From contig CAZVGK010000033.1 in assembly GCA_964626665.1 (NCBI GenBank), positions 1 to 30,350 of the forward strand: a DNA stretch of 30,350 bases, read 5' to 3'. The DNA is from an uncultured Gemmatimonadota bacterium. GTDB lineage: Bacteria > SM23-81 > DAOVCL01. A model generated the notes under the pieces. The model did no database searches. It saw nothing but the letters and a program-made list of their open reading frames with translations, and was not told the DNA's origin. Below, one piece after another: positions 3,756 to 22,366 of the stretch. The position numbers and the translations under genes were made by a program. How positions within the stretch are numbered: position 1 is the stretch's first letter; every line of letters starts with the position of its first letter.

Positions 3756-3865
3756 CGCAGCACCGGATCTGACAAATAGAAAAACAAGAAAGCAACTACT
3801 CCGGAGAGCATATAACGGAAGGCCTCCGCTAGATTCAACTTGGTCATAAGGACTCTCTGATATAT

Positions 3866-3968
3866 CGTCTAAGGGACTGGCGCCCCTATTGTACCCCTTG
3901 ACTCGTATTGACTTTCAGGTTTGGTTACACCTTGGCTTCATAGTGTAACCAGCGACAGTTAGCTTATC
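3866..3968. repeat. 103-bp attC-abutting element, copy A (left IR degenerate)
   Basis: Right 60 bp collinear with 4941-5043; ends ttagcttatc. Confidence 0.7.
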
Positions 3969-4027
3969 ATCACGAGCGTATCTGATGTAGCGGTGGAGCA
4001 GGATAAGATTTCGTCTTTTTGTTATTC
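3962..4027 (-). other. Degenerate attC-like site with GAT core
   Basis: atc-atcacgagcgtatctgatgt resembles aac-gttccgagcgtagctgaagt (12162); ends GTTATTC over the stop of the 4022 gene. Confidence 0.55.
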
Positions 4028-4870
4028 CTCATCATCCTCAAAATATTCCCCATATTCTTCATCAAATGTGTCTTTCCATCCTAATTTCCCACCCGATAGT
4101 GCATCCATAATGGCTCCTGAGGGTAGCGCACTCTCCAACGCTTCTAAGGGTAGATAACCCTCGTCAGGCCTCCCTTTTTTTATTCTACCGATGGCGATTT
4201 GACACATCTTATAGTCTGTGTAATTTTCTGGAAAGAAATCTCTTGCCTTTCTGATATGAGGGATTGCCCTTTTATCTTGCTGCTTTACCATACAGTTTAA
4301 CAGATGGAAAAAGTCTATATTTCTATATTTCCAATCGCGTTTTGTTGGATCAAAAGCTTCGTCAGGCATTTCCGACATATAGTCGTCCAACAATTTATTT
4401 AGAAATTCAACTGATTTATCGCATCTTATCTCTCCTATGGTACTCAATGCGTATGCCGTTATAAGATCTATCCCCCTCCCTTCTTTAATTGGGTTTTTGA
4501 TTCTATACTCTACCTTTTTAATCACAGCTGGAACGCAAACAGGGCCAAATTTCTTAAGCGCTTTCTTGGCATTTTCACCAAGTTCTGGTTCCTCTATGGC
4601 ATCTGCCAGTGGTGGGATAGCTCTCCTATCACCAATCTCTCCCAGTGCGTCCGCGGCATACCAACTGCTTTGCCATTTATGTTCATTTAATACTTCTATC
4701 AACTGTGGAACTGCAGGTTTGCCAATAGCCACCAATTTGTTTCCAATTCTTTTTAGTTCTTCTTCCCCCTTTTCTGAATAATCCATACCATCATATTTTT
4801 TCAACTCTTCAGTTAAACTTTTGATTTCCTCTCCCATCCCTTTTCGCGGTCTTCCCTCTTTTTTGGTCAT
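4022..4870 (-). CDS. HEAT/PBS-lyase repeat protein
   Basis: AADALGEIGDRRAIPPL-type repeats. Confidence 0.8.
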   Translation of the reverse strand: MTKKEGRPRKGMGEEIKSLTEELKKYDGMDYSEKGEEELKRIGNKLVAIGKPAVPQLIEVLNEHKWQSSWYAADALGEIGDRRAIPPLADAIEEPELGENAKKALKKFGPVCVPAVIKKVEYRIKNPIKEGRGIDLITAYALSTIGEIRCDKSVEFLNKLLDDYMSEMPDEAFDPTKRDWKYRNIDFFHLLNCMVKQQDKRAIPHIRKARDFFPENYTDYKMCQIAIGRIKKGRPDEGYLPLEALESALPSGAIMDALSGGKLGWKDTFDEEYGEYFEDDEE

Positions 4871-4940
4871 TTTATTTACCCCCTTTTCAATCTTGTATTA
4901 TATCCTGTGAGTGTAAATACAAACTTTTCCAAAACCGCTT

Positions 4941-5043
4941 GATAAGCTAAACAACGCTCCTATATTAGGATGATGGGCTATATAAGCACCAAAGTCTGGT
5001 TATACCTCAGTTCCATGGTGTAGCCAGCAACGTTTAGCTTATC
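4941..5043. repeat. 103-bp attC-abutting element, copy B (intact IRs)
   Basis: Perfect 12-bp terminal IR gataagctaaac/gtttagcttatc; inner hairpin ctggttatacc/ggtgtagccag. Confidence 0.85.
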
Positions 5044-5121
5044 GGAATAGAGACAAAAGAAGTTCCGCTGCAAACAGAATTTGGGGGAATCCTCGCTTTC
5101 CCCTTTTATCCGTTGCTATGT
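5037..5121 (-). other. Degenerate attC-like site with GAT core
   Basis: Shares aaaagaagttccRctg...gaatttggg...ccttttat with attC 7185-7273; overlaps the stop of the 5116 gene. Confidence 0.6.
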
Positions 5122-5859
5122 GAAGTTGATACGGCTTTTCCCGTTTTCTAACAACCATTTCTTCCATCTCTTTTTAAAATTCTTAAAATCTTCACTAAGT
5201 ATTTCAAATACATTTCCATTATCACACTCTCTCACAATTTTCAATATCATCTCTTTGCCATAGGTATTTTCAATGAACATAACCATCGTCCATCCCCAGT
5301 CATAACTTAATTCTATATTACCTTGAATCTCTTTAATATCAGGGATAAGCTTTTCCTTAATACCTTTTAAGACAGGCTGTCTAAATTGGTCCTCATCCTT
5401 CCATTGTCCAGATAAATAAACGGCCAGTCCTTCACTCCACCATCTTGGAGTTGTTTCAATGTCAGGGGTAAGATACTCCTCAAAGACATGAGTTAATTCA
5501 TGGAACACAAGTCGCCTATATTCATCCGACTTATATCTATATGTAGAATGATCTTTATACGCAGAAGGGGAAAGAAAAACCAGATCGGTTTTTTGAGCCT
5601 GTGCTACCCTCGCGGGATTAGAAGGTGTTTCTATCTCAACCCTCAACAAATTTATTACGAGATGGTCATATTCTCTTCTATTGGGAACCAATATCGCTCT
5701 AATTGTTGGAGGAAAGGGCTTTTTTGGGCAAAAATATCCTGAAAGAAAGACAAGCGCCTCTTTTGAAGCTATAAAGGTTTCCTCGGCAGACGGTTTGTCT
5801 CCTTCTATATATCTAACTTCTATATTACCTTCACCAAGCACTAAGTAATTATCTAACAT
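5116..5859 (-). CDS. Peptidase MA-clan-like zinc metallopeptidase domain protein
   Basis: HELTH plus downstream WWSEGLA gluzincin-like motif. Confidence 0.8.
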   Translation of the reverse strand: MLDNYLVLGEGNIEVRYIEGDKPSAEETFIASKEALVFLSGYFCPKKPFPPTIRAILVPNRREYDHLVINLLRVEIETPSNPARVAQAQKTDLVFLSPSAYKDHSTYRYKSDEYRRLVFHELTHVFEEYLTPDIETTPRWWSEGLAVYLSGQWKDEDQFRQPVLKGIKEKLIPDIKEIQGNIELSYDWGWTMVMFIENTYGKEMILKIVRECDNGNVFEILSEDFKNFKKRWKKWLLENGKSRINFT

Positions 5860-5880
5860 CTATATGTCCCAAAGAATTTC

Positions 5881-5959
5881 GTCTAACGCATCCCAGATAT
5901 ACGAGGTGGTGTAAGGCATTTGGGCGTAACGCAGTGAAGCCGTATATCTGGTGTTATCC
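5881..5959 (-). other. attC recombination site
   Basis: GTCTAAC...ccagatatacg/cgtatatctgg stem...GTTATCC; GNAT stop codon inside the core. Confidence 0.85.
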
Positions 5960-6520
5960 GATGTTGCCGGTCTTCAACCGCTCCCATTCGTGGTCGAGAA
6001 TAGCGAACAAAAAAGAATCACGCCATCTTCCCTTTGCCCACTTGTGCTCCCGGAGGTGCCCCTCACGTTGCATGCCGATTTTCTCCAAAACACTTATGGA
6101 CACAATGTTCGCCGGATCGCACGTAGCAAAGACCCGATGCAACTTGAGCCTGTCAAAGCCAAACGTAAGGAGCGCCCTTGCGGCCTCAGTCGCATAGCCC
6201 TGTCCCCAGAAATGGCGATTGAAGCAATAGCCGATCCACCCCTCTCGACTATCTGGGTTTGACACATGAATTCCACAACCGCCAATGAGCCGATCTCTTG
6301 CCTTCAAAACTACTGCGAACTCGTAGTTCCTCCGGGGCTGTTCCTGCTGATAAGCAATTGCTTGACGAATGAAGTTCCGGCTCTCATCCTCTGTATTAGG
6401 CCCCCATTCCATGTAGCGAACAACCTCCGGATCAGAGGCGTACTCATGCACAGCTTGCCAATCGAGTTCGTCAAACTCTCGCAGCACAAGGCGCTCCGTT
6501 GTTAGTGACAGGTGCTTCAT
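5954..6520 (-). CDS. GNAT family N-acetyltransferase (RimJ/RimL type)
   Basis: TERLVLREF, WGQGYATEA, NIVSISVLEKIGMQREG motifs. Confidence 0.92.
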   Translation of the reverse strand: MKHLSLTTERLVLREFDELDWQAVHEYASDPEVVRYMEWGPNTEDESRNFIRQAIAYQQEQPRRNYEFAVVLKARDRLIGGCGIHVSNPDSREGWIGYCFNRHFWGQGYATEAARALLTFGFDRLKLHRVFATCDPANIVSISVLEKIGMQREGHLREHKWAKGRWRDSFLFAILDHEWERLKTGNIG

Positions 6521-6544
6521 AATTCCACTTGTATTGGCTGTTTG

Positions 6545-6565
6545 GTATAACGGACGGCGTTATCT
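6545..6565 (-). other. Collapsed 21-bp attC (internal deletion)
   Basis: GTATAAC-ggacggc-GTTATCT: both cores kept, 7-nt remnant identical to the start of the 12908 attC. Confidence 0.65.
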
Positions 6566-6582
6566 GCCGTAGCCAGTTTGCT

Positions 6583-6975
6583 CTATGCAGATTCAATCGG
6601 GATCTCGTACTTTACAGGCAATAGTCTTTCTAAATTCAAACGCTTGGAAGCATCAAGGATCTCAATGCCCACAATTCTGTCACCTTCCCCCACATCCAAC
6701 ACAATGTCCTCAGAAAGCCGCTTGTTAATCACAGGCTGTTTCCGGTCATCTAAGCGAATGTAAAGCAAATCAGTCTTGGCATTATACCCCGTATTCCGGA
6801 AAATCAGTTTTTAGATTCGTAACTCATTGATTTTTAAAGATAAATTTCCCGGATTTTTATGGACTACATTTTTATTGGTGGTTGTTAAAAAACTGTTCAA
6901 CTGGTTGATATTATTGTAGTTTTTCGTATTCAATCTTAAATTTTTTCCGGAATGTGGGTTATACAGTATCTGCAT
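6583..6975 (-). pseudogene. DUF2283-like TA partner gene interrupted by a MITE
   Basis: Near-identical to 11635-11850 but split a few codons after the start by the 6788-6958 insertion. Confidence 0.88.
6788..6958. mobile_element. 171-bp MITE with 16-bp TIRs and 6-bp target duplication
   Basis: CCCGTATTCCGGAAAA...TTTTCCGGAATGTGGG flanked by TTATAC at 6782-6787 and 6959-6964; empty site seen at 11834-11839. Confidence 0.92.
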
Positions 6976-7141
6976 CTTCTCCCTGTCGTTTCCGCTTAAA
7001 ATCATAAACTTTGGCTTTCCCCATACGACCATATCTCGCCGGAATAGGGAACCCCGTATTGACCACATCTTTGATTTCATCTTCATTCGTGCCGCGTTCC
7101 TCAGCACGTTCCAGAGTATGGAGATCGATCTGGATTCCCAT
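6959..7141 (-). pseudogene. DUF4258-like toxin with a 33-aa in-frame deletion
   Basis: Copy of 11834-12115 lacking KYYEQ...GKWEG. Confidence 0.85.
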
Positions 7142-7184
7142 CTCCTGTTCTCCTTGAGCTCCCCTTGTAAGTGCTGGCCATAGT

Positions 7185-7273
7185 AGGCAACGTTCTCAGC
7201 ATAAAAGAAGTTCCACTGAAGGCGGAATTTGGGTGAGTGCCGTTAGGCACGAACCTTTTATGCTGTGTTAGGC
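7185..7273 (-). other. attC recombination site
   Basis: AGGCAAC...cagcataaaag/cttttatgctg...GTTAGGC. Confidence 0.85.
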
Positions 7274-7285
7274 GATGAGGTGGCA

Positions 7286-7918
7286 TCATTTTCCCTTCAA
7301 TCTCTCAATTTCCTTTCTGATTTCTTCGACAACCTCGGGGTTATGGATAATCTTCTTTTTCCCTTCCTTAACAGAGAATACGATAAAGACCTTCCCACCG
7401 AACTTTTTCTGGAATTTACGATGGGATGTTTCCTGCATCTCTTTCCATTTATAGTCTTCAAATGTATGCTTGAAGGTAGTGGGTTTTATTTGCAAGCCGA
7501 TATATTTACCGTTTATCTCGATAAAGAAATCCACGTTGTAGAGTCGGTCCCATTCATCTGGTGCTGGTTTTATCTGGATACCCAGGATATTTTGTAACTG
7601 CCCATAAATCGTTTCTATTTCGGTCATATAACCGTCAAAAGTCCTTTTGATTACTACTTCTTTGATATAATCAACACAGTCTGCTTCTGTCACCTTCGCA
7701 ACTTCACATTGGATTACCTCGGTAACCTTTACATACAGTTTTCTGCCAAGTTCATCCAAATACTCTTCAGGATAAACATTTTCATAATAATACACCTCCC
7801 AATCTTCCAATTTCTTTGGGACACATTTTCTGATGAATTCCGAAACAGGGCCAACAGAACGCTTTTTGTTCAACCCCCATCTATTCATCGCTTGGTTTAA
7901 CACCCATTCCTTTGCCAT
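7286..7918 (-). CDS. MjaI-family type II restriction endonuclease
   Basis: MAKEW..N..MNRWGLN N-terminus; VDFFIEINGKYIGLQIKP PD-(D/E)xK-like core; close to an MTase. Confidence 0.8.
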   Translation of the reverse strand: MAKEWVLNQAMNRWGLNKKRSVGPVSEFIRKCVPKKLEDWEVYYYENVYPEEYLDELGRKLYVKVTEVIQCEVAKVTEADCVDYIKEVVIKRTFDGYMTEIETIYGQLQNILGIQIKPAPDEWDRLYNVDFFIEINGKYIGLQIKPTTFKHTFEDYKWKEMQETSHRKFQKKFGGKVFIVFSVKEGKKKIIHNPEVVEEIRKEIERLKGK

Positions 7919-7946
7919 TACTTCCTTACTTGAGTTTAGGTTTACA

Positions 7947-8303
7947 TTAGAGTTTGTTTAATACCCTCAACACTTCTTTTGTATCCTCTAAACTATCTTT
8001 CATTGGGGATGGACATTGTATGTAATCTATAAGATCGAACATTAGCTGAAACTTGAGGCAGTCCTTGATAGATAGTCCCCAGATCGTTGTGACTCCACAG
8101 TTCAGGCAATCCTTGTTACATTTTTCAACAATAGCATAGAGTTCATCTGCACACTCATAGCAGACTTTTTCATAGGGTTCCAATGGAGTTAGTTTACCAT
8201 CTTGTGGTGATGGTTCTTCCTCAACGAGAACAACCCCGCTCTCTCCATATTCCAAATCAAATTCCCTTCCACACCTTTCACAAACCCATTTTGACTCATT
8301 CAT
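7947..8303 (-). CDS. Cys-rich putative zinc-binding protein
   Basis: CERC, CYEC, CNKDCLNC motifs; overlaps the MTase stop. Confidence 0.7.
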   Translation of the reverse strand: MNESKWVCERCGREFDLEYGESGVVLVEEEPSPQDGKLTPLEPYEKVCYECADELYAIVEKCNKDCLNCGVTTIWGLSIKDCLKFQLMFDLIDYIQCPSPMKDSLEDTKEVLRVLNKL

Positions 8304-9615
8304 TTCTTATCTCCTTTCTATATCCTAAAAATTTAGATTTATGCTTATAGTCAAAAGTGGTATCTACATCAACTAATCCATTTCTTATCAGGTGTGCATT
8401 GATAAAGGTTTTGTTTCTCAAATAGAGATAGCAAAACAGCTCATTCTCTTTGTCATATTTTTCATTTTCTTTTTCGTATTTTATGGTATCAAAGTTTAAA
8501 AATACTTTCTGTCCACAAGTTTTCTCCTTTAAGAACTTAATCGCCTCCGTATTTTTCTTAGGCTTTTCTTTTACCCCTATCAATCTAATTCTCAAACCGT
8601 TATCTAAAACCAATACTTCCGGACTGACAATCTCCTTCACAGAATAATAATCTTCTCTTTCGGAATGAGAGTTATCTATTTTTGATCCAAATCTCAATTT
8701 TCTTGGGTCAACTTTCTTATCAAACTTTATCGGATCTTTGAAGATATAGGGGAGTTTTTTAATTTTATCCGTAAAATCAGTATCTGTCTTATCCTGCTCG
8801 ATTATCTCAAAGACCACATCTTCAAAAATCGTCTTTTGCCTTAACCTTAGCTTTTCTTTTATGATTGGGAGAAAATCCTTATTGATTTCATACCCGATAG
8901 AATTTCTGCCTAATTTTCTTGCCGCCAACGATGTTGTTCCACTGCCCAGGAATGGATCGAGGACGGTATCGGAAACAAAACTAAACATTTTGATAAGCCG
9001 TCTTGGTAATTCTTCTGGAAACATCGCCAGATGTTTATGCTGTTTCTCTCCCGGAAAATTCCAGTGTCCAGTAAAATATTGATTCCATTCTTCTTGGGTC
9101 AATTTCGACTGTTCTTTAACTTCATGGCTTACTTTCGGCTGAGTACCATATTTTTTGAAAATCAAGATAAATTCATAATCTAATTTAAGAATCCCACTTC
9201 TTGGATAAGGGAAGGAACCCATTACTGTTGCCCCACCCGTGGTATGGCAAGTAGTGACTTTTTGCCAGATAATGGCACCCATATAATCAAACCCAGCGCT
9301 TTCGCAAAACTTAATTATCTCTGTTCTTATCGGAATGACTTTATACCTTCCATAATATACAGAACGGGCAAACTGGTCTCCGATGTTAATGCACAAACGA
9401 CATCCCTTATGCAAAACCCTATGGGCATCATTCCAGACCAAATTTAGATTATTAATATACTCCTCATAAGTGTCATTGAACCCTATCTGCTTTCCATTTC
9501 CATAATCCTTTAATTGCCAATAGGGAGGAGAGGTAATAATGAGATGGACAGATTCATCAGCAACTTCCTTCATTCCTCTTGAATCGCCAATGATTATCTT
9601 ATGTAGTATTTTCAT
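8296..9615 (-). CDS. Beta-class N4-C/N6-A DNA methyltransferase with C-terminal thermonuclease-like domain
   Basis: TSPPY precedes DPFLGSGTT; C-terminal IRLIGV...LFCYLYL...FINAHLIRNGLV resembles the SNase fold. Confidence 0.88.
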   Translation of the reverse strand: MKILHKIIIGDSRGMKEVADESVHLIITSPPYWQLKDYGNGKQIGFNDTYEEYINNLNLVWNDAHRVLHKGCRLCINIGDQFARSVYYGRYKVIPIRTEIIKFCESAGFDYMGAIIWQKVTTCHTTGGATVMGSFPYPRSGILKLDYEFILIFKKYGTQPKVSHEVKEQSKLTQEEWNQYFTGHWNFPGEKQHKHLAMFPEELPRRLIKMFSFVSDTVLDPFLGSGTTSLAARKLGRNSIGYEINKDFLPIIKEKLRLRQKTIFEDVVFEIIEQDKTDTDFTDKIKKLPYIFKDPIKFDKKVDPRKLRFGSKIDNSHSEREDYYSVKEIVSPEVLVLDNGLRIRLIGVKEKPKKNTEAIKFLKEKTCGQKVFLNFDTIKYEKENEKYDKENELFCYLYLRNKTFINAHLIRNGLVDVDTTFDYKHKSKFLGYRKEIRNE

Positions 9616-9659
9616 CTTACATTCTCATATGATTGTGTTTTATTTAAAGCCACCGTTTC

Positions 9660-9729
9660 GCTTAACGAGCGGCGGGTAAGCGAATTTGGGCGGAGTAAAC
9701 TCCGCCGCTTACCCGCAGCCCCGTTATAT
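9660..9729 (-). other. attC recombination site
   Basis: GCTTAAC...gcgggtaagcg/cgcttacccgc, inner ggcggagt/actccgcc...GTTATAT. Confidence 0.9.
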
Positions 9730-9743
9730 GAAGTTGCCGATAT

Positions 9744-10646
9744 CTATTCCAATCCATAAACTTGTCTTGGTGCAAGATACTTTGGAAATTTATCTAAAAG
9801 GGCTAAGCGAACAAGATAGCAGAAATGACACGCGTCAACATACTTATCCTCATGTTTAACATTGTATTCTTTGGCTAAAAGAGCAGGCCCTCCTCTAACC
9901 AAAGGCCCACAGATCGGATGTGAATCAGCATTATAGTTCTTAACTATCATTGATAGGGGGGTTTCCCACATATTGCCCATACTCAACCCCTGACAGAGGT
10001 GGACGTTACCATATGGATCGAGATGAACTCTCTCTGGTTCTTTTAAATCTTCATACGGACATTCTGTGAATTCTTCCCACCTTCTTTGCGGAAGCCCTTC
10101 TACCAACTTTTCAACTGCCCTCCCTCTAAACATAGCGCCACCACCAATAACTGGCGCTCCTTTATTTTGCTCCTTATCTATATCTGCTTCAACCGTAGGC
10201 TTCTCAATGCAAATTGAATCGACAGGCATGCCTAATCTTTTTGCCGCAGCTAAAGCCCGTTTGGCAGGATTATCTTTTTCATCTTCATAATGGAATGAAT
10301 CGTCACTTATACTAAGGTCAGAAATTCCTAATTCAAGAAGAGGTTTAAGCCAAAGTTCTGCGTCTTCCTCGGATACTGCAAAATATGCATTAGTTACAAT
10401 ACCTACTTTGAAGCCGATCTTTCGAGCAATTTTGATTCCTTCAATCATTAGAGGGTAGAATAAAAACGGCTCACCACCTTCAAAGTATATCCATTTTATT
10501 GTACCAATCTTAGTTGCTTCATCAAGAGCCATCCGTATTTGGCTCAAAGTGAAAGTACCCTTGGCATCCGGGGCGCTGTATACAAAACAATGGTCACATT
10601 TTAAATTGCACATGTAAGTTAGAAGAAAATGGATTCCAGTTAGCAT
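9744..10646 (-). CDS. Radical SAM protein
   Basis: CNLKCDHC, GGEPF, C-terminal Cys cluster (SPASM-like). Confidence 0.92.
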   Translation of the reverse strand: MLTGIHFLLTYMCNLKCDHCFVYSAPDAKGTFTLSQIRMALDEATKIGTIKWIYFEGGEPFLFYPLMIEGIKIARKIGFKVGIVTNAYFAVSEEDAELWLKPLLELGISDLSISDDSFHYEDEKDNPAKRALAAAKRLGMPVDSICIEKPTVEADIDKEQNKGAPVIGGGAMFRGRAVEKLVEGLPQRRWEEFTECPYEDLKEPERVHLDPYGNVHLCQGLSMGNMWETPLSMIVKNYNADSHPICGPLVRGGPALLAKEYNVKHEDKYVDACHFCYLVRLALLDKFPKYLAPRQVYGLE

Positions 10647-10873
10647 GATACACCACCTCTACTAGCGAAGCTTCGCCTCAAACCGTCCAGCTATGGCAGC
10701 ATAGCCTGGGCGAAGCTTCGAATGTAAAATTAAGAATTTAGAATTAAGAATGAAAAAACTGAAGGCGAGGGGCCTGGGTCTAAGCTCATTGTCCATCTCT
10801 TTCTTCAGGCCCCAAAACTTGACACAAATTTTAAGATCTTGCCTTATGAAAATGACTAGATACAGACAATTTC

Positions 10874-10948
10874 ATATAACGGGGCGGTGGGTAAGCGAAT
10901 TTGGGCGGAGCCGTTTACCTGCTAATAGGCGAAGTGACGCTAGCCCCG
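10874..10948 (-). other. Degenerate attC site
   Basis: ATATAAC-ggggcggtgggtaagcgaatttgggcggag (same family as 9660); distal GTT core missing after gccccg. Confidence 0.7.
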
Positions 10949-10950
10949 AC

Positions 10951-11199
10951 CTAAAACCTATCAGGCATCGTTTGAGCAACTGGTATAGATTCTGTTCTCG
11001 CAGGAGGTCGTTTGCCCTCGGCGATTTCGTCGACTCTTTTCAGTATCGTTGAATGATAATATCGGTAGCCACACTTATTGCATATTCCTACGGGCACATT
11101 TTCAAGCATAACGAAGCCATTTTTGTGTTTGAAGACTTCCTTTTTCACCAGTCGCTCTTTGACAGTGCCCCCGCAATATTCACAACTATAGCCATACAT
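10951..11199 (-). CDS. YgiT-type zinc finger protein (putative antitoxin)
   Basis: CEYCGG...ENVPVGICNKCG. Confidence 0.85.
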   Translation of the reverse strand: MYGYSCEYCGGTVKERLVKKEVFKHKNGFVMLENVPVGICNKCGYRYYHSTILKRVDEIAEGKRPPARTESIPVAQTMPDRF

Positions 11200-11215
11200 T
11201 CCCCTTTCCCTCCTG

Positions 11216-11500
11216 TTAAGTAATTGCGTAAACCGTTATGATTAAAAAAGTTTCTGTTTCCTTAAACCGACCTACTACTCCTACTGGTGTAGATTGGTCA
11301 CTACTTACTCCTTTTATTACGTATTTGACACCACGAGGATCACCTTTTTCTTTCTTTACAATCTTACCACTTAAAATAGCACTCTCCACATCAAAGATTC
11401 CAAGCCTATCCTCTGCCATTTCTTCAACAGCATGATGTGTCATGTCGTAGTTCCCCGTTCCGATCGCATAGCGTATCTTATCAATTATACGTCGAGACAC
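11216..11500 (-). CDS. DUF4258-like putative toxin
   Basis: THHAVEEM...IITVY motifs; upstream of the YgiT finger gene; GTG start after AGGAGG. Confidence 0.82.
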   Translation of the reverse strand: MSRRIIDKIRYAIGTGNYDMTHHAVEEMAEDRLGIFDVESAILSGKIVKKEKGDPRGVKYVIKGVSSDQSTPVGVVGRFKETETFLIITVYAIT

Positions 11501-11542
11501 TTAGTGTCCTCCTATTGTGATCACTAAATCATATTATATCCC

Positions 11543-11628
11543 GACAGGCTAAATGACGCTCCTATTTTGCCTGGTGGCCTATATAAGCTCCGAAGTCTGG
11601 TTATACCTCAGTTCCATGCCGTTGCCAG
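11543..11628. repeat. 103-bp element copy C (right end lost)
   Basis: Highly similar to copy B up to ttccatg, then runs into the TA-cassette end sequence. Confidence 0.8.
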
Positions 11629-11634
11629 TTTGCT

Positions 11635-11850
11635 CTATGCCGTTTCAATTGGAATCTCGTACTTTACAGGCAATAGTCTTTCTAAATTCAAACGCTTAGA
11701 AGCATCAAGGATCTCAATGCCCACAATTCTGTCACTTTCCCCCACATCCAACACGATATCCTCAGAAAGCCGCTTGTTAATCACAGGCTGTTTCCGGTCA
11801 TCTAAGCGAATGTAAAGCAAATCAGTCTTGGCATTATACAGTATCTGCAT
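11635..11850 (-). CDS. DUF2283-like protein (TA partner)
   Basis: YNAKTDLLYIRL...IVGIEILDAS signature; 71 aa from the ATG at 11850. Confidence 0.85.
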   Translation of the reverse strand: MQILYNAKTDLLYIRLDDRKQPVINKRLSEDIVLDVGESDRIVGIEILDASKRLNLERLLPVKYEIPIETA

Positions 11851-12115
11851 TTTCTCCCTCCCATTTTCCATAAAAGACATATACCGTCACGGTTATCATA
11901 ATCTCTTTTTCTGTGGTGTAGATTACCTCGACTCTCTTCTGCTCATAATACTTACCGTGGCGTTTCCGCTTAAAATCATAAACTTTGGTTTTCCCGATAC
12001 GACCATATCTCGCCGGAATAGGGAACCCTGTATTGACCACATCTTTGATTCCATCTTCATTCGTGCCGCGTTCCTCAGCACGTTCCAGAGTATGAAGATC
12101 GATCTGGATTTCCAT
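11834..12115 (-). CDS. DUF4258-like putative toxin
   Basis: HTLERAEERG...ITVTVY; 93 aa; overlaps the DUF2283 start. Confidence 0.8.
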   Translation of the reverse strand: MEIQIDLHTLERAEERGTNEDGIKDVVNTGFPIPARYGRIGKTKVYDFKRKRHGKYYEQKRVEVIYTTEKEIMITVTVYVFYGKWEGENADTV

Positions 12116-12157
12116 CCCTGTTCTCTTTGAGCTCCCCTTGTAAGTGCTGGCCATGGC

Positions 12158-12244
12158 AGACAACGTTCCGAGCGTAGCTGAAGTCGACGAAGGGGAATGT
12201 GGTCGGAGTGCCGAAGGCACGCAGCCAGATATACTTTGTTAGGC
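12158..12244 (-). other. attC recombination site (partly degenerate)
   Basis: AGACAAC...agcgtagctg/cagatatact...GTTAGGC; shares the gagtgccg..aggcacg hairpin with the 7185 site. Confidence 0.75.
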
Positions 12245-12253
12245 GAAGCCTTT

Positions 12254-12883
12254 TTATTCATATCTTACCTCTATGCCACTAGTTTTACTCAATTTATAAA
12301 AGGAAACGAATCGCTTTATGGAATCACTAGCTGATTTGACCTTCTTACTCAGTTTCTTATACCTCCTAAGAAGATATTCTTCTAAGTCACCGGAAAACAC
12401 GAAAGATACGCCGGAAGTCATATTGAAATTTTTAAATGGAATGAGTCTAATAAATAATAATAATCCGGGAATAGCGGTTTTACTGAATGCAATGTCTATT
12501 ATCTTCATGTTATCTTTTTTGTTCAAAATGTCATTTAAGAGTAATGTATTTTCTGCTTCAGAGATAGAAGCAACTTTGAATAGAGAAGTATATGACGAGA
12601 GTAAAGCATGCAATATGTCTTTCTCTACCTCATTTTGCCAGCCTATCTTCTCCCGATAAATCTCGATGGTATTCTTATTATTCACTCTATATTCGTTAAG
12701 AGCAAAATCCATTAAAACGCTTGTTTCATCCTCGCTATCAAATACAAAGGTATCTCCTCGAGCAACACCAAGTAATCTCGCTGATCTCATCAATACATCA
12801 CGATCAAGGCAGGAATCCATTATTTTATGATTTAATTCTCTGCCAATTTTTCTATATGCTTTATATTTTTTCACAAGAGTCAT
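12254..12883 (-). CDS. Hypothetical protein (cassette gene)
   Basis: 209-aa ORF bounded by matched cassette ends. Confidence 0.8.
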   Translation of the reverse strand: MTLVKKYKAYRKIGRELNHKIMDSCLDRDVLMRSARLLGVARGDTFVFDSEDETSVLMDFALNEYRVNNKNTIEIYREKIGWQNEVEKDILHALLSSYTSLFKVASISEAENTLLLNDILNKKDNMKIIDIAFSKTAIPGLLLFIRLIPFKNFNMTSGVSFVFSGDLEEYLLRRYKKLSKKVKSASDSIKRFVSFYKLSKTSGIEVRYE

Positions 12884-12907
12884 GGCAATCTTTCCTCATA
12901 AGGTTTC

Positions 12908-13040
12908 GCCTAACGGACGGCGGGTAAGCGAATTTAGGCGGAGTGGAGCAAAGTCACTTATCCTCCTAAATCCGTGCATTGATTCTGTTAAACTCGATTC
13001 CGGAGAAAACACAGTTCTTCAATAGATTCAGAAGTTAGGC
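12908..13040 (-). other. attC-like site, possibly chimeric
   Basis: GCCTAAC-ggacggcgggtaagcgaattt ... GTTAGGC; arms pair poorly. Confidence 0.65.
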
Positions 13041-13056
13041 GATCCAGCGAACTCGC

Positions 13057-16000
13057 TCACCTAAGAATCCCTTTGACTAACGCGTCAATTTCTTTCAATT
13101 CGTCTTTCAGCATCTCCCGTACCATTCCGCGCAGTTTGCCAATGCTCTTAATTTTTCCTGGGCCACCGCTTGCCAGCCATTGGTCTACTTTAGCGCTGCA
13201 TTCCCTGCCCGACTTTGCCAGCCGCTGATGGACGGCGTTCTTCGCATCGAATTGAGGGATGGGAAGTTCGAGAACCTTTTTGCAGATGTCACGCGGACCC
13301 CACAAACCGCGGCTCTGCATCGGTTTAATCAGCTTGTCAACCACGGGCGCGTTGAGAACAGCCGCCAGGTAAGGGGCCTCGTAGCTGTTGATTGTATCGT
13401 AGTAATAAGTCTTGTAATCCGCAAGGAATCCATGCGCCGTGAGACACTGCCCATCGATTTCAAACTCAATTGGCTCGTTTTCAACGACTGCCGCGGTCAG
13501 AAATGTGCCAGAAGTATTGTAAATGATCCGATACTCGGCTTGTAAACTTTGTGCCGTCAGCGCATGAAATCGGTCAAGCCGTTCGTAGACGTTCATACGT
13601 GCTGCTTTTGCACTGCGCCGCCTGGCCCATTCTTCCTCCGCTTTCTCCAGCCACTGCGCCAGATGCAAGAAGCCGCGTTGACGGGCTCCGTTAGCATCAA
13701 TCAGCTTATAGTGGTCTCCTTCTGGCTCAATTGGCAGCACGAGAAGACGGTAATCAAGATGCCCAAAGGGAAGCAAGTCTGTTGAGAGAAGGGTCGCATA
13801 GAGAAAGCGATTTTCCACCATATCTTGGAAAAATACACTTTTATATGCATCCTTAGCTTGCTCTTTTGCCTGGTCAGCCGTTTCCAGCGGTGGCAAATTA
13901 GGGTTGAATCCGAGCGGTGATGGTCTCAATTGTACAAACCAGAACGATCGGGGGAAAATCGTTGCGCCCAGCATAAATTGCTTCTTGTAGTAGCTCTCCC
14001 CTCGCGTGATCATAGCGGTCCCCGTGGCCCAGAAGGAACGCTGGCCCCGAATATGAACCGAGAACTCAACATCCTCCACCGTGAGTGCACTCTCAGCCTC
14101 GGCAAGCAAGGCGTTTTTCCGTTTCAGTTTTCCGTTCAGGAGTTGCCCCGCGACGGGATACTTAACTTTCGCGGTTTGGCTCTTCTCAGCTATCAAAACA
14201 CAGGCAGGCACATTGAACAGTGGCTTAACGTTCTCGCAGTCCCAAACCTCACCCCAAAAGAGATTTCGCCTTGCGTCTTCGCTGAATTTGAAGGCACGCT
14301 TGCGCAGTCCGTCGTGCTGGTCGGCGCTGAACAAACTCCTGGGCAAAACGAATGCAATCGTCCCACCGCTTTTAAGATACAAGTCCGCCGCTCTCACCAG
14401 GAACAGCGTCGCCACCTCCATCTGGGTAATAAGTTCACCCCGTCCGGTAAGGAGTTTGTACTCCTGCGTGATTTGCCGTTTCAGAAAAGCCTGATAGACG
14501 GGTTCCATGAAGCGGAAGGCGAGCCACGGTGGATTGCCCATAACAAAATCAAATCTGCGTTTGAAAAAGAGCGGTTTGTAGATGTTTTTCAGGACGAACG
14601 CCCAAATCGTGTCGCGATCGCTATCAATAAAGTGTTTCAATACCTCCGCAATAGCATAGAGTGAGAGAACGAGACCATCATCGTCGATTCCGGGAAAATG
14701 TTGTGCCACGAGGAAATTACGAAATGGTTCCAATGTGATAGGTTTGCCCTTGTTTTGCCGTGCGAACTCTTTCGCCAGTTCAATCGCTTGATCAAAGAGT
14801 CCAACATCCTTAACCAGCAACTCAGGCAGATGGATTTCTTTCCCGTCAAGTTCAACGCGGTAGCCTGGCAACTGCTCTACCAGGGCTCCATTTGTTACAC
14901 CTATTTTTTGCTGTTTTACTAACTCCGGTAACTTGATCGCGTCTGCAAGGTAGACGGGGATTGTAACCGTGCCCCTCCGTTTCTTCAGCAAGTCACCGAG
15001 AGCAAGGATATAGTTGGTCTTGGCAATGATAACCGCGAGGGGGTGAATGTCCACGCCATACACCGAGTCGAGAATATGGCGGAGCGTCTGTAACGAGCCT
15101 CCGAGCCTTTCACGCTTTTCGCGGATGGCTAAATAGAGAAATGTGCCTGAACCACAGGCGGGGTCAAGCATCGCTCCGTGCGGGTTGGCATCAAGCAATT
15201 TGCGGACCATGCGGTGGGCAAGCCAATCGGGGGTGTAGAACTCACCCAGGTCGTGCCGCGTTTCGGGATCTACCAGTTCTTGATACAGTGATTTTAACAC
15301 ATCTTCCGAGAGTTCACGCAGATTGTAATTCTGCAACAGGCTAAATAACCAGCGCACCACACTGACACCAATTTTTACGGCCTCTGCACGTGCCAGCCAG
15401 GAGAAGAAATCCTCCTCGATGAAATTCTCAATCCCCTGAGCCTTGAACAATTGCCCTTCAAGCATCTCGACGATTTGCGCGTCTTCAGGCAGTCTCGTGC
15501 TTTCGCTGATGCGCATCCACGACATCAGTTTCGCCAGAGTGGCCAGGTAGGTGTGACGAACAAAGAGTTCATCGCCAGTTACCTCACTACCATACACGAT
15601 ACGGAGATACTTCTCCCAACTATCATAAATGACCGCGAAGGCGCTCTGTGCCTTAATCTCTTGCCACAGTATTAGAAGAGCGCTCGTGGCGGTTTGAACG
15701 GCGTGGCTTTTCACGCCGAAATCACGCACAATTATCTCGCTGGTCGGATGTAGAATCTCTTTGCGTAAGAAATAGCGGTCGAGCCAGTAGAAAATCTCTT
15801 GAGGTTTGAGTTTTGTCCAATCCGCTTCTTCAAGCACTTGTAAGCACACATCATCTGGCGCCACATCTTTGGTGATGGCGTTGACGAATGTCGGCGAATA
15901 GGTTATGAAGTGGACACCATCTGTGGCGATACAGAGGTAGGGTGTGCGGGCATCGGGGGGTTCCTGGGACCAGAGAATCGCCACATAGCGGCGCAATTGC

Positions 16001-16329
16001 TCTTCGGCTTCGCCGCGCTTTTTGGGAATATTTACCTCAAACTCAATAATGATATTGCCAAAGAGGTTGTCCGCTCTGCCTTTCAGAATACGATCTTTCT
16101 GCCTCACCTTCAGATATTGCTCAATGCCAGTGCTATAGGTCTCGATGAAGTTGGGTTCAATGCTGAGGAGTTGCTGGACAAGCATCGCAAAGCGGTGCGA
16201 GCGTGCTGATTCTTTGTTCAGTTGCCCCACTTCGCGCAAATATTGTGGGATAGTATCTTCCCATTGCACCTGGCGCGTTTCAGGGATACGGACGGCTTTT
16301 TCGGTGAGTTTCGTTTTTTTTCTCACCAT
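13057..16329 (-). CDS. Type IIG-like fused restriction-modification enzyme (gamma-class N6-adenine MTase)
   Basis: GEFYTP, DPACGSGTF, NPPW motifs; N-terminal ADNLFGNIIIEFE nuclease-like region; C-terminal TRD-like region. Confidence 0.88.
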   Translation of the reverse strand: MVRKKTKLTEKAVRIPETRQVQWEDTIPQYLREVGQLNKESARSHRFAMLVQQLLSIEPNFIETYSTGIEQYLKVRQKDRILKGRADNLFGNIIIEFEVNIPKKRGEAEEQLRRYVAILWSQEPPDARTPYLCIATDGVHFITYSPTFVNAITKDVAPDDVCLQVLEEADWTKLKPQEIFYWLDRYFLRKEILHPTSEIIVRDFGVKSHAVQTATSALLILWQEIKAQSAFAVIYDSWEKYLRIVYGSEVTGDELFVRHTYLATLAKLMSWMRISESTRLPEDAQIVEMLEGQLFKAQGIENFIEEDFFSWLARAEAVKIGVSVVRWLFSLLQNYNLRELSEDVLKSLYQELVDPETRHDLGEFYTPDWLAHRMVRKLLDANPHGAMLDPACGSGTFLYLAIREKRERLGGSLQTLRHILDSVYGVDIHPLAVIIAKTNYILALGDLLKKRRGTVTIPVYLADAIKLPELVKQQKIGVTNGALVEQLPGYRVELDGKEIHLPELLVKDVGLFDQAIELAKEFARQNKGKPITLEPFRNFLVAQHFPGIDDDGLVLSLYAIAEVLKHFIDSDRDTIWAFVLKNIYKPLFFKRRFDFVMGNPPWLAFRFMEPVYQAFLKRQITQEYKLLTGRGELITQMEVATLFLVRAADLYLKSGGTIAFVLPRSLFSADQHDGLRKRAFKFSEDARRNLFWGEVWDCENVKPLFNVPACVLIAEKSQTAKVKYPVAGQLLNGKLKRKNALLAEAESALTVEDVEFSVHIRGQRSFWATGTAMITRGESYYKKQFMLGATIFPRSFWFVQLRPSPLGFNPNLPPLETADQAKEQAKDAYKSVFFQDMVENRFLYATLLSTDLLPFGHLDYRLLVLPIEPEGDHYKLIDANGARQRGFLHLAQWLEKAEEEWARRRSAKAARMNVYERLDRFHALTAQSLQAEYRIIYNTSGTFLTAAVVENEPIEFEIDGQCLTAHGFLADYKTYYYDTINSYEAPYLAAVLNAPVVDKLIKPMQSRGLWGPRDICKKVLELPIPQFDAKNAVHQRLAKSGRECSAKVDQWLASGGPGKIKSIGKLRGMVREMLKDELKEIDALVKGILR

Positions 16330-16330
16330 A

Positions 16331-16633
16331 TCAGTGCTTTTTCCGATCCATAAAACGGCGTGCTAATTCAAAAGCTGCGGCAATACGAATGATTTTTACA
16401 TCGGACAAGCCCTTGATCTCCAACAATTTCTCAAGCGGTTGATTCGCCAGCCCCTCAAGCGAACCAAATTCTTCGAGAACCTCTTCGGCTATTTTATCTG
16501 CAGGTTTCCCTCGAATGCCCGTTGAGATCAGAATAGCAAGAAGCTCTGCATCGGTGAGGCTGTCTGCACCTTGCTCTCTCAGTTTCCCCCCAGGGTGCTT
16601 CCATTTGGTTATCAAGAGTTCATCTCCTCCCAT
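16331..16633 (-). CDS. UPF0758/RadC N-terminal HhH domain-only protein
   Basis: KLREQGADSLTDAELLAILISTG...IKGLSDVK...AAFELARR; no JAB/MPN domain. Confidence 0.85.
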   Translation of the reverse strand: MGGDELLITKWKHPGGKLREQGADSLTDAELLAILISTGIRGKPADKIAEEVLEEFGSLEGLANQPLEKLLEIKGLSDVKIIRIAAAFELARRFMDRKKH

Positions 16634-16664
16634 TGATTATCTGGCAAAGTCGCTGTTTCGCCAC

Positions 16665-16767
16665 AATAAGCTAAGTAACACTTCCTTTTCGTCAGTTGGC
16701 TTGCACTAGGAACCAAGTTTGGTTACACATCTGCTTCGTGGCACACGCCAGCGCCATTTAGCTTATC
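16665..16767. repeat. 103-bp attC-abutting element, copy D
   Basis: ataagctaa/ttagcttat IR; same length as copy B; followed by ggacggcgggtaagcg (attC arm). Confidence 0.8.
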
Positions 16768-16795
16768 GGACGGCGGGTAAGCGATGTACCCACTC
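16761..16795 (-). other. Half attC remnant with GAT core
   Basis: gcttatc-ggacggcgggtaagcga matches gcctaac-ggacggcgggtaagcga (12908) except in the core. Confidence 0.7.
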
Positions 16796-18154: not shown

Positions 18155-18231
18155 GCCTAACTTCTTTATATCCGCAGTTGATTGCGGATATACCTCCAAT
18201 TTGGAGTTATATCCGAAGTACGTCGGATATG
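18155..18231 (-). other. Putative attI-like array-proximal recombination site
   Basis: First G|TTAGGC core of the array preceded by three palindromes instead of an attC stem. Confidence 0.6.
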
Positions 18232-18256
18232 CATCTCTATAGTTGACCAACAACCT

Positions 18257-22246: not shown

Positions 22247-22366
22247 TCTGACAGGATAAACAGGATTTACAGGATCTTTACCACAAACTATACAAGGAAA
22301 CACTGAATGAGGTTGTTTGTCCTGTTCATTCTGTCAATCCTGTCTAAAGATGGGAATTCCTATGCC
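22247..22366. repeat. 9-mer periodic inverted-repeat element, copy 2
   Basis: gacaggataaacaggatttacaggat...gtcctgttcattctgtcaatcctgtc-taaagatgggaattcctatgcc. Confidence 0.7.

Follow-up and report, generated by a model that had tools for sequence, protein, structure and literature searches.

A Short Multi-Copy Unit with ATC/GAT Cores at the Cassette Junctions of a Gemmatimonadota Genome: Possible Body of a Gene-Less Integron Cassette

Structure of the Locus and Copies of the Unit in the Window

The stretch of DNA analysed in this work (30,350 nt, hereafter referred to as the window) corresponds to the whole contig CAZVGK010000033.1 (C33) of an uncultured Gemmatimonadota bacterium from a salt marsh, whose genome (assembly GCA_964626665.1) consists of 3.17 Mb in 63 contigs. 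The lineage is a sparse one, represented among the genomes searched by two further genomes of the same genus and four more in the phylum. Between positions ~1,400 and 18,250 the genes are all located on the minus strand, and imperfect palindromes with RYYYAAC ... GTTRRRY ends lie between them (as an example, at 9660-9729, 7185-7273, and 5881-5959). This region is an integron-type cassette array, whose reading direction runs from high to low coordinates; the plus strand of the window is therefore the bottom strand of the attC sites, and the term "bottom strand" denotes the plus strand of the window throughout. Restriction-modification genes (MjaI, type IIG, and others) are found among the cassettes, as well as genes coding for a GNAT acetyltransferase and for DUF4258 and DUF2283 proteins. 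The object of the present analysis is a short non-coding unit, about 102 nt long, which is embedded at some of the junctions of this array and which may represent the body of a gene-less cassette.

Four copies of the unit, all reported here on the plus strand, are harbored by the window, where an earlier note on this DNA had placed them: copy A (3866-3968), copy B (4941-5043), copy C (11543-11628), and copy D (16665-16767). An nhmmer profile constructed on the four copies retrieves them with E values from 3.7e-26 to 1.2e-21 (A, 1.9e-23; B, 3.7e-26; C, 1.2e-21; D, 1.6e-24). Copies B and D are full-length (103 nt each), and C is interrupted after position 11628, in agreement with the earlier description. 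The inverted ends previously attributed to the copies were recovered in B (GATAAGCTAA / TTAGCTTATC) but neither at the start of D, which begins with AATAAGC, nor on the left side of A, whose right end is intact (GCTTATC, 3962-3968) and whose left inverted end is degenerate (CGTCTAAGGGAC); in the same way, the collinear inner core (tggttaYacc...gtgtaRccagc) forms a good hairpin in A and B but a poor one in D.

The window units are located 31-110 nt upstream of start codons. Considering the direction of the genes, B lies 70 nt upstream of a HEAT-repeat gene (4022-4870, minus strand), C 42 nt upstream of the DUF4258 gene (11216-11500, minus strand), and D 31 nt upstream of a RadC-N-like open reading frame (ORF) of 100 aa (16331-16633, minus strand). 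Since this ORF precedes the type IIG gene (13057-16329, minus strand), D does not directly abut the type IIG gene, contrary to the earlier note. The sequence on the right of copy C is a duplicate of 6565-6787, and the fact that the duplicate at 11617 starts inside the copy accounts for its lost right end. The duplicated block (6565-6787 plus 6981-7211 versus 11617-11839 plus 11955-12184, sharing 95-96% identity) carries a DUF2283 gene and an attC.

Copy B and its junctions are confirmed by a contig of a sequencing run (not marked as a possible source) that covers positions 4618-5458 without differences. A relative differing at ~7% of positions is present in a hydrothermal-vent run, with the right half of A, an attC, the HEAT gene, and the start of B in the same order. 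Among the joints listed for the contigs of four DNA runs, none takes out a unit, nor a cassette with a breakpoint at the boundary of a unit; those touching positions 16747, 16715, or 11548, whose sides are short (20-26 nt), were read as other copies of the family matching this stretch. Among public RNA runs, none was listed as containing the stretch.

Anatomy of the Unit

The consensus of the unit spans ~102 nt and comprises, besides the 17-bp inverted ends (GATARGCTAAATGGCGC ... GCGCCATTTAGCYTATC), two hairpins, of which P2 is short and P3 consists of 10 pairs. Standard pairs occupy 71.5% of the pair cells in the 23 aligned copies, versus 27-40% when the partners are slid by 1-3 columns. The observed covariation score was reached by 4 of 500 shuffles, a figure that the relatedness of the copies can inflate. 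The ends co-vary, GATAAGC being found with GCTTATC and GATAGGC with GCCTATC, and the pair 12-116 is GC in six, AU in four, and GU in four copies. The wobble cells are balanced (87 G-T versus 98 A-C), so that neither strand appears to be favoured.

The unit is non-coding, each reading frame being open in at most 4 of 25 copies, and its body measures ~90 nt. Its orientation relative to the neighbouring genes is identical in the 14 copies of this genome (14/14). Out of 25 tabulated copies, eight are cut on the left, at differing points, and two on the right. When joined to an attC in a circle of 199 nt (copy G001_C205, from one of the same-genus genomes), the unit folds as an almost fully paired rod, with -52.3 kcal/mol versus -22.4 +/- 3.6 for shuffled sequences, a difference that is partly built in by the construction of the circle.

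Copy Number and Distribution

A covariance model (R1), constructed on nine full copies, three of which are window copies, gave E values from 2.9e-10 to 2.5e-20. Since the window copies that were scored helped to build the models, independent support comes from the further copies found elsewhere. The unit is in fact not limited to the four copies of the earlier description: nhmmer disclosed 14 copies in this genome at E <1e-3 (16 rows listed), the iterated profile returned the same 14, and R1 gave 15 rows within an E limit of 0.1, the two lowest-ranking of them weak. The R1 searches covered roughly 215 genomes; 4 and 7 matches were found in the two same-genus genomes, i.e., 11 additional copies, and none in the 58 other sampled genomes (0/58). 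The 25 copies of these three genomes were tabulated together with their flanks. A position matrix of the 17-nt ends adds a few fragments (C2:244, C12:37504, C29:419, and window position 10924); as matches scoring at least 14 number 42 in the genome versus 22 in the shuffled genome, only the high scorers count. The window fragment, which might represent a fifth copy reduced to its left end (AATAGGCGAAGTGACGC, 10924-10940, plus strand), has a borderline score of 14.7 and, read by eye, falls on the R'' box of the attC at 10874-10930.

The copies, with a mean column identity of 65%, are old and diverged, and they are confined to cassette junctions rather than being scattered genome-wide; two truly dispersed repeat families of the same genome behave otherwise. 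The four unit-carrying cassettes of the window have no counterpart in the sister genomes, and thus no unit-free orthologue is available there. No match to a full copy was found in plasmid and phage collections by blastn in distant mode. The Rfam search gave no match at the gathering score over the whole window, and at E up to 1 over positions 3800-5150 it returned only the unrelated sR52 (E 0.4, inside the HEAT gene); no tRNA or tmRNA gene was found.

Unit-like ends were also found in two of the 151 sampled genomes of the phylum of the WOR-3-type bacteria, both as weak matches. The first of these genomes contains a 37-nt hairpin with related ends (GATAGGCAAAATG / CATTTTGCCTATC) and the second a unit of 108 nt whose ends are nearly the same and whose interior is unrelated; both lie directly beside attC-like arms. 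At a WOR-3-type locus (L050, G132:C31, 520-590, minus strand) an attC with ATC and GAT cores (AGATATC ... GATAGGC) has no unit beside its 5' core, so that the variant core occurs in attC sites as such. Since the ends and the variant core are seen in WOR-3-type genomes with a differing or absent interior, they are older and wider in distribution than the interior, which is genus-specific among the genomes searched.

Junctions between the Unit and attC Sites

In all the copies that keep the right end (23/23), this end coincides with the R' core position of an attC, the core triplet being ATC in 20 copies and AAC, GTC, and CTC in one copy each. The 12 junction cores of the window, read by eye, consist of nine AAC (18155, 12908, 12158, 10874, 9660, 7185, 6545, 5881, and 3810) and three ATC, and all three ATC cores are unit ends; the replacement of AA|C by TTAT|C noticed earlier is thus found in 3/3 window copies with a right end (...GCTTAT|C). 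The arms that follow the right end are 5' attC arms of at least six families. In D the arm is identical to 12915-12930 (16/16 bases), in B it resembles the one at 7203 (82% over 34 nt), and in A the one at 12165, which makes the three differing arm families pointed out by the earlier note real repeats; the copy of contig C19 and two copies of the sister genome G001 are flanked by arms similar to the family at 18162.

A complete attC lies directly on the left of the unit in at least 6 of the 25 copies (C14, C16_22770, C3_174238, G001_C205, G002_C93, and G002_C59); the 5' core of these sites is TAAC in most cases and TAAT in one, and their arms are of the GGGTAAGC type. In the six doubly flanked copies, the first heptamer of the unit occupies the R'' position (GATARGC in three, GTTAGGY in two, and CATAGGC in one). 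The left attC stops at the first base of the unit with canonical spacing (...CCGCC.CCCC|GATAGGC versus ...CGCAGCCCC|GTTATAT), and a different attC begins at its last base. Nearly all the left-hand sites have arms of the CGCTTACC type; near-uniform left arms and right arms of many families would be the outcome of a left site that moves together with the unit and a right site that is part of whichever neighbour is present. In two copies (C14 and G001_C205) both flanking sites carry an AATTTGG-type motif in the same orientation. Following the direction of the genes, the upstream attC is succeeded by G|ATARGC, the unit, GCYTATC as R'', the arms of its own attC, G|TT, and the next cassette, an arrangement corresponding to a cassette that has the unit as its body.

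Three sites of the window, all on the plus strand, share their core with a unit. The attC of the cassette located upstream of B (5037-5118), which carries a Peptidase_MA-like gene (5116-5859), has as its R' core, in the bottom-strand form, the last 7 nt of B (GCTTATC) and as R'' GTTGCTA; its arm is homologous to that of the attC at 7185-7273, and its arm complementarity alone is weak (score 6.0). Beside D only half an attC is found (16761-16783), made up of the core GCTTATC and the arm GGACGGCGGGTAAGCG, identical to 12915-12930, with no partner arm after it. Lastly, the first 7 nt of the short attC-like site of the HEAT cassette (3962-4021; weak score, 5.0) are the right end of A, and its arm is similar to that at 12165.

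Copies Fused to Gene Cassettes

The own attC of the unit is absent in B, C, and D, in which the gene starts 70, 42, and 31 nt, respectively, past the left end. Roughly half of the copies, B, C, and D and probably A among them, would represent a unit fused as a 5' leader to the next cassette after the loss of its own attC. The homologues of the HEAT protein are informative in this respect. They were found at 13 metagenome loci (55-100% identity), and R1 matches only the locus identical to the window, the other 12 having no match at E up to 1. Two of these 12 (L057 and L052) possess a canonical attC followed by G|TTAT ~92-96 nt before the ATG, and their leaders align with the leader of the window up to the last bases of B; therefore, the unit was added before an ordinary cassette, and the attC expected between the two is missing. 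Past the left end of D comes GT-GGCGAAAC, which normally continues G|TTAGGCGAAAC; this arrangement fits a collapsed attC and an insertion into a canonical core alike.

The Unit as the Body of a Gene-Less Cassette

Starting from these observed features (the anatomy of the unit, its copy number, its fixed orientation, and the position of its junctions), the reading that we favour is a family of gene-less (ORF-less) integron cassettes in which the unit makes up the body, apart from the attC; we assign it a probability of roughly one half (0.5). Since the right end replaces the RYYYAA|C core and the left end supplies the R'' of a second attC, the unit and that attC together read as a gene-less cassette in which both core triplets are swapped. 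According to this model, the unit would terminate in an R' core of 7 nt (GCYTAT|C) that it shares with the attC belonging to the preceding cassette and in which the crossover falls between T and C, and the first 7 nt (GATARGC) would be the R'' core of the cassette's own attC, where this is still present. The middle base being swapped alike in both cores (ATC/GAT for AAC/GTT), R' and R'' would still pair in the excised circle; the core helix would be lengthened by ten further complementary bases into the 17-bp inverted ends, and two hairpins would fill the remainder. If the ends are the R' and R'' of one cassette, both the inverted repeats and the covariation of A/G at position 5 with the partner T/C are explained. 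The integron integrase would move the unit like any other cassette, with strand exchange at G|AT, and deletion of the own attC may have led to the fusion of the unit, as a leader, to the next gene cassette.

Concerning its possible role, the unit might act on its neighbours through promoter activity or by competing with attC folding through the sequestration of shared cores. We rank first a cis effect on the next cassette (promoter or folding) and second a functionless passenger. The 17-bp helix could compete with both neighbouring attC hairpins for the shared cores, which would lower excision and favour fusions. A more far-reaching version of this idea, which we consider unlikely, sees the units as "rod" mini-cassettes, selfish or regulatory passengers of pure recombination structure with compensated GAT/ATC cores, a 10-bp clamp, and a nearly fully paired excised circle, whose clamp would draw the cores away from the adjacent attC, lowering excision and favouring fusion.

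Gene-less cassettes are a known class, promoter activity being the function known for it: in Vibrio, sense-strand promoters that in-silico prediction missed are reported for most of the 29 tested ones (PMC11014356), and such cassettes are also mentioned for integrons of oral Treponema (PMC6557892). Like the gene-less cassettes of Vibrio chromosomal and oral Treponema integrons, the unit has no ORF, lies between attC sites in an array with a fixed orientation, and is upstream of gene cassettes. Unlike them, its body is much smaller (~90 nt) and belongs to a conserved multi-copy family; it is a hairpin whose stem corresponds to its own R' and R'' plus ten more pairs, with GAT/ATC cores; frequently it is joined to the next cassette with no attC in between, and it has no shared match to a promoter consensus. 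The comparison with attC sites (59-base elements) is equally instructive. Both are imperfect palindromes of ~100 nt with heptamer cores at both ends, adjoining a crossover point, but the polarity is inverted: the AAC/GTT of an attC face the hairpin inside, whereas those of the unit, ATC/GAT, occupy its outer tips, turned towards the arms of the adjacent attC sites. A GTTRRRY-like heptamer is found at the 5' end of the unit and a RYYYAAC-like one at its 3' end, on both strands, so that the unit is what lies between two attC sites.

The variant core itself has precedents. A mutational study on IntI1 defines the second base of GTT as "quite tolerant" and reports that T to A, with the complementary change, raised recombination (PMC2811028); IntI1, IntI2, and IntI3 insert cassettes at genomic 5'-GWT-3' sites, cutting after G (10.1101/2022.09.11.507474). 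These two sources support the GWT consensus of secondary sites given in the earlier note, GAT being tolerated. The G|AT of the unit fits 5'-GWT-3', as in secondary or genome sites of the integrase (attG), and the arrangement at its two ends is the same as that of the IntI1 GAT sites that recombine at least as frequently as the wild type once the complementary base is changed too. Unlike these laboratory sites, the variant core of the unit is a fixed natural feature, found in another phylum and on both cores of one cassette.

Some observations weigh against this interpretation. The second attC is clear in 6 of 25 copies and doubtful in ~4-6 of 25, the window copies having no clear one. The arm-complementarity score exceeds the 95th percentile of random genome positions in only 4/25 right and 4/25 left flanks, and therefore most of the attC calls rest on family likeness to clear sites and on reading by eye. 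A stem-plus-triplet attC detector, applied genome-wide, remained below its null (81 AAC/GTT candidates versus 127 in the reversed sequence), and its ATC/GAT candidates fall mostly within genes. The flanks of D (GTTTCGCC-AC on the left and GGACGGCGGGTAAGCG on the right) resemble one canonical junction split by an insertion, and in both C16 copies a complete canonical core (GTTTCTAAC) is located just outside the unit end. An intact integron integrase is found near none of the unit copies, and the literature on GAT and GWT sites concerns IntI1, IntI2, and IntI3 in E. coli, not the enzyme of this organism.

Alternative Explanations

Among the three readings suggested by the earlier note, the ORF-less cassette is the best supported, at least 6 of 25 copies lying between two co-oriented attC sites, an acceptor site predicts the right junction but not the left one, and an attC-targeting element finds weak support. 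This last possibility, i.e., a non-autonomous insertion element similar to a miniature inverted-repeat transposable element (MITE) with 17-bp terminal inverted repeats, moved in trans by an enzyme targeting the conserved 7-bp core of attC, draws on the analogy with IS1111-attC elements, which, like group IIC-attC introns, are found at attC sites in one orientation. The inverted ends, the many copies, and their uniform size are in line with it; moreover, the flanks of D rebuild a canonical junction minus two bases, the C16 copies are beside a canonical core and not in its place, and two IS110-family transposase genes are present in the genome. These genes (C4:21687-22160 and C36:18901-19329) do not, however, lie near any end match, and no direct repeat or target duplication is seen at the flanks of the 25 copies read. 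Longer copies encoding a recombinase, which the earlier note had envisaged, did not emerge, since no match in any search exceeded ~109 nt (all matches <=109 nt) and no gene is enclosed by inverted ends separated by over 300 bp. Without the unit, each of the six doubly flanked copies would be left with two coreless attC sites and no intact target, and the age and divergence of the copies are unlike those of a recent burst. The unit shares with MITEs and with palindromic repeats of the REP/BIME type (repetitive extragenic palindromic sequences/bacterial interspersed mosaic elements) its shortness, its non-coding nature, its multiple copies, and its inverted ends, but it lacks a target duplication and is found only at cassette junctions. 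Unlike IS1111-attC elements and group IIC-attC introns, its copies have no transposase or reverse-transcriptase gene and no ribozyme domains, and the core is replaced rather than the site being split; in addition, no Rfam intron match was found in the window and no RVT_1 match in this genome. An insertion element thus appears unlikely to us.

We consider improbable that the unit is a double-stranded acceptor site of the integrase (attG- or attI-like), with cassettes inserted at the G|AT of its end and units marking the seeding or extension of arrays. Insertion into a GWT site would produce the right junction that is observed (attC arm, G|ATAAGC), many attC families abut the right end, and the C19 unit borders an array, with a V-type ATPase gene next to it; yet the precise location of the left end at the R'' of a co-oriented attC in at least six copies would not be accounted for, nor would the spreading of four units within one array. 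The right-hand motif CRGM, reported for E. coli hot spots (10.1101/2022.09.11.507474) and possibly specific to IntI1, is replaced by CTAA in the unit. Little probability is also left to a cis-acting RNA or transcription signal (promoter module, structure of the 5' untranslated region, small RNA, or terminator) conserved for downstream expression, in which the likeness to attC cores would be incidental. It would agree with the fixed orientation to the genes, the short distance from the start codons, the conserved inner hairpins, and the sense promoters of most of the tested Vibrio gene-less cassettes, where in-silico prediction failed (PMC11014356). On the other hand, a consensus scan gave no gene-strand sigma-70 match in the four window copies (4/4) and one match on the opposite strand, in B only, even though host promoters may differ and such scans are reported as unreliable for this class in the same source. 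The lack of any Rfam family match, of a strand bias in the wobble pairs, and of a T-run after the hairpins speaks against such a signal as well, as does the interior, which differs or is absent in the WOR-3-type relatives that keep the ends. Finally, the unit itself might be an attC whose R'' and R' are the inner heptamers (GCTAAAY ... RTTTAGC) located 5 nt inside the ends. In B these form a perfect canonical pair (GCTAAAC ... GTTTAGC), and the leaders of the HEAT homologues align with their G|TTAT core near the inner heptamer of this copy; but AAC/GTT is found in B only, the consensus is AAT/ATT, the G before TT is A in most copies, the flanking attC arms start after the outer heptamers and not after the inner ones, and the triplets of the unit face outwards, which makes this hypothesis very hard to sustain.

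Array Setting and Other Features of the Genome

No integrase gene is present within the window, and the matches to the integron-integrase model in this genome are fragments scattered over several contigs and carrying stop codons. The only full-length integrase-like ORF (C52:467-1558, locus L012; 363 aa) scores 230.6 bits against a cut-off of 265 for that model, which it matches in two pieces, ~40 middle model positions having no counterpart, and it passes the XerA/integron-integrase NCBIfam model (238.6 bits, cut-off 220). On this basis, the array looks like an attC cluster with no integrase next to it. The relatives of the C52 recombinase at 59-71% identity belong to records titled WOR-3 and Thermodesulfobacteriota; in three other genomes harboring such relatives, no unit was found in the flanks of the recombinase gene, and, with the whole genomes searched, only one of them gave a match, the short hairpin with related ends.

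Regarding the attC sites of the window, two on the plus strand served as references: the canonical site at 9660-9729 (GCTTAAC ... GTTATAT, with a perfect 11-bp inner stem) and that of the MjaI cassette at 7185-7273 (AGGCAAC ... GTTAGGC), representing the arm family beside copy B. A profile search with the commonest arm family retrieved only 13 half-sites in the genome, and the attC sites of this genome are therefore diverse; as a marker of arrays, an 8-mer arm motif proved too unspecific. The first attC-like site of the array (18155-18248, plus strand; GCCTAAC ... GTTGACC) contains three hairpins and lies directly after a BatA-like housekeeping gene. A three-hairpin family of this kind (TATATCCG-type stems around AATTTGG) marks the edge of arrays both there and at C19:4444-4530 of the same genome (G000), where it follows a V/A-type ATPase subunit gene; it also abuts a unit in C19, in G001, and in a WOR-3-type genome (L050). 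The family may represent the entry site of arrays without an integrase.

Genes of the restriction-modification or defence type are common in the cassettes beside the units (MjaI, ThaI, Mrr-like, type IIG, N6/N4 methylases, and SNF2-related; window 7286-9615 and 13057-16633, and loci L005, L007, and L010). As for the two dispersed repeats, the first (10647-10873; ~190 nt, intergenic, directly on the left of the attC at 10874) has 74 blastn matches on 34 contigs and dozens in both sister genomes, and its summed contig depth in metagenome runs is very high; it probably constitutes a distinct family, of either MITE-like elements or gene-less cassettes. The second (2472-2760, also 22315-22366), located in a 756-nt gap between ORFs, has 112 blastn matches on 42 contigs and many in the sister genomes, and extends beyond the cassette arrays.

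Significance of the Family

Should the unit be only a decaying leader, it would be an ordinary curiosity; if the rod mini-cassette version were true, the unit would shape which cassettes stay mobile and would seed integrase-less arrays beside housekeeping genes. No part of integron arrays is understood as poorly as the gene-less cassettes. As the body of such cassettes, the family would provide a naturally occurring instance of a joint change in the two core triplets of one cassette (GAT/ATC), as the mutagenesis of IntI1 sites predicted to be tolerable, and a small multi-copy object (~200 nt with its attC) on which the influence of core pairing, helix length, and neighbouring hairpins on excision and fusion could be tested. 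It would also give a marker for integrase-less cassette arrays in poorly known phyla.

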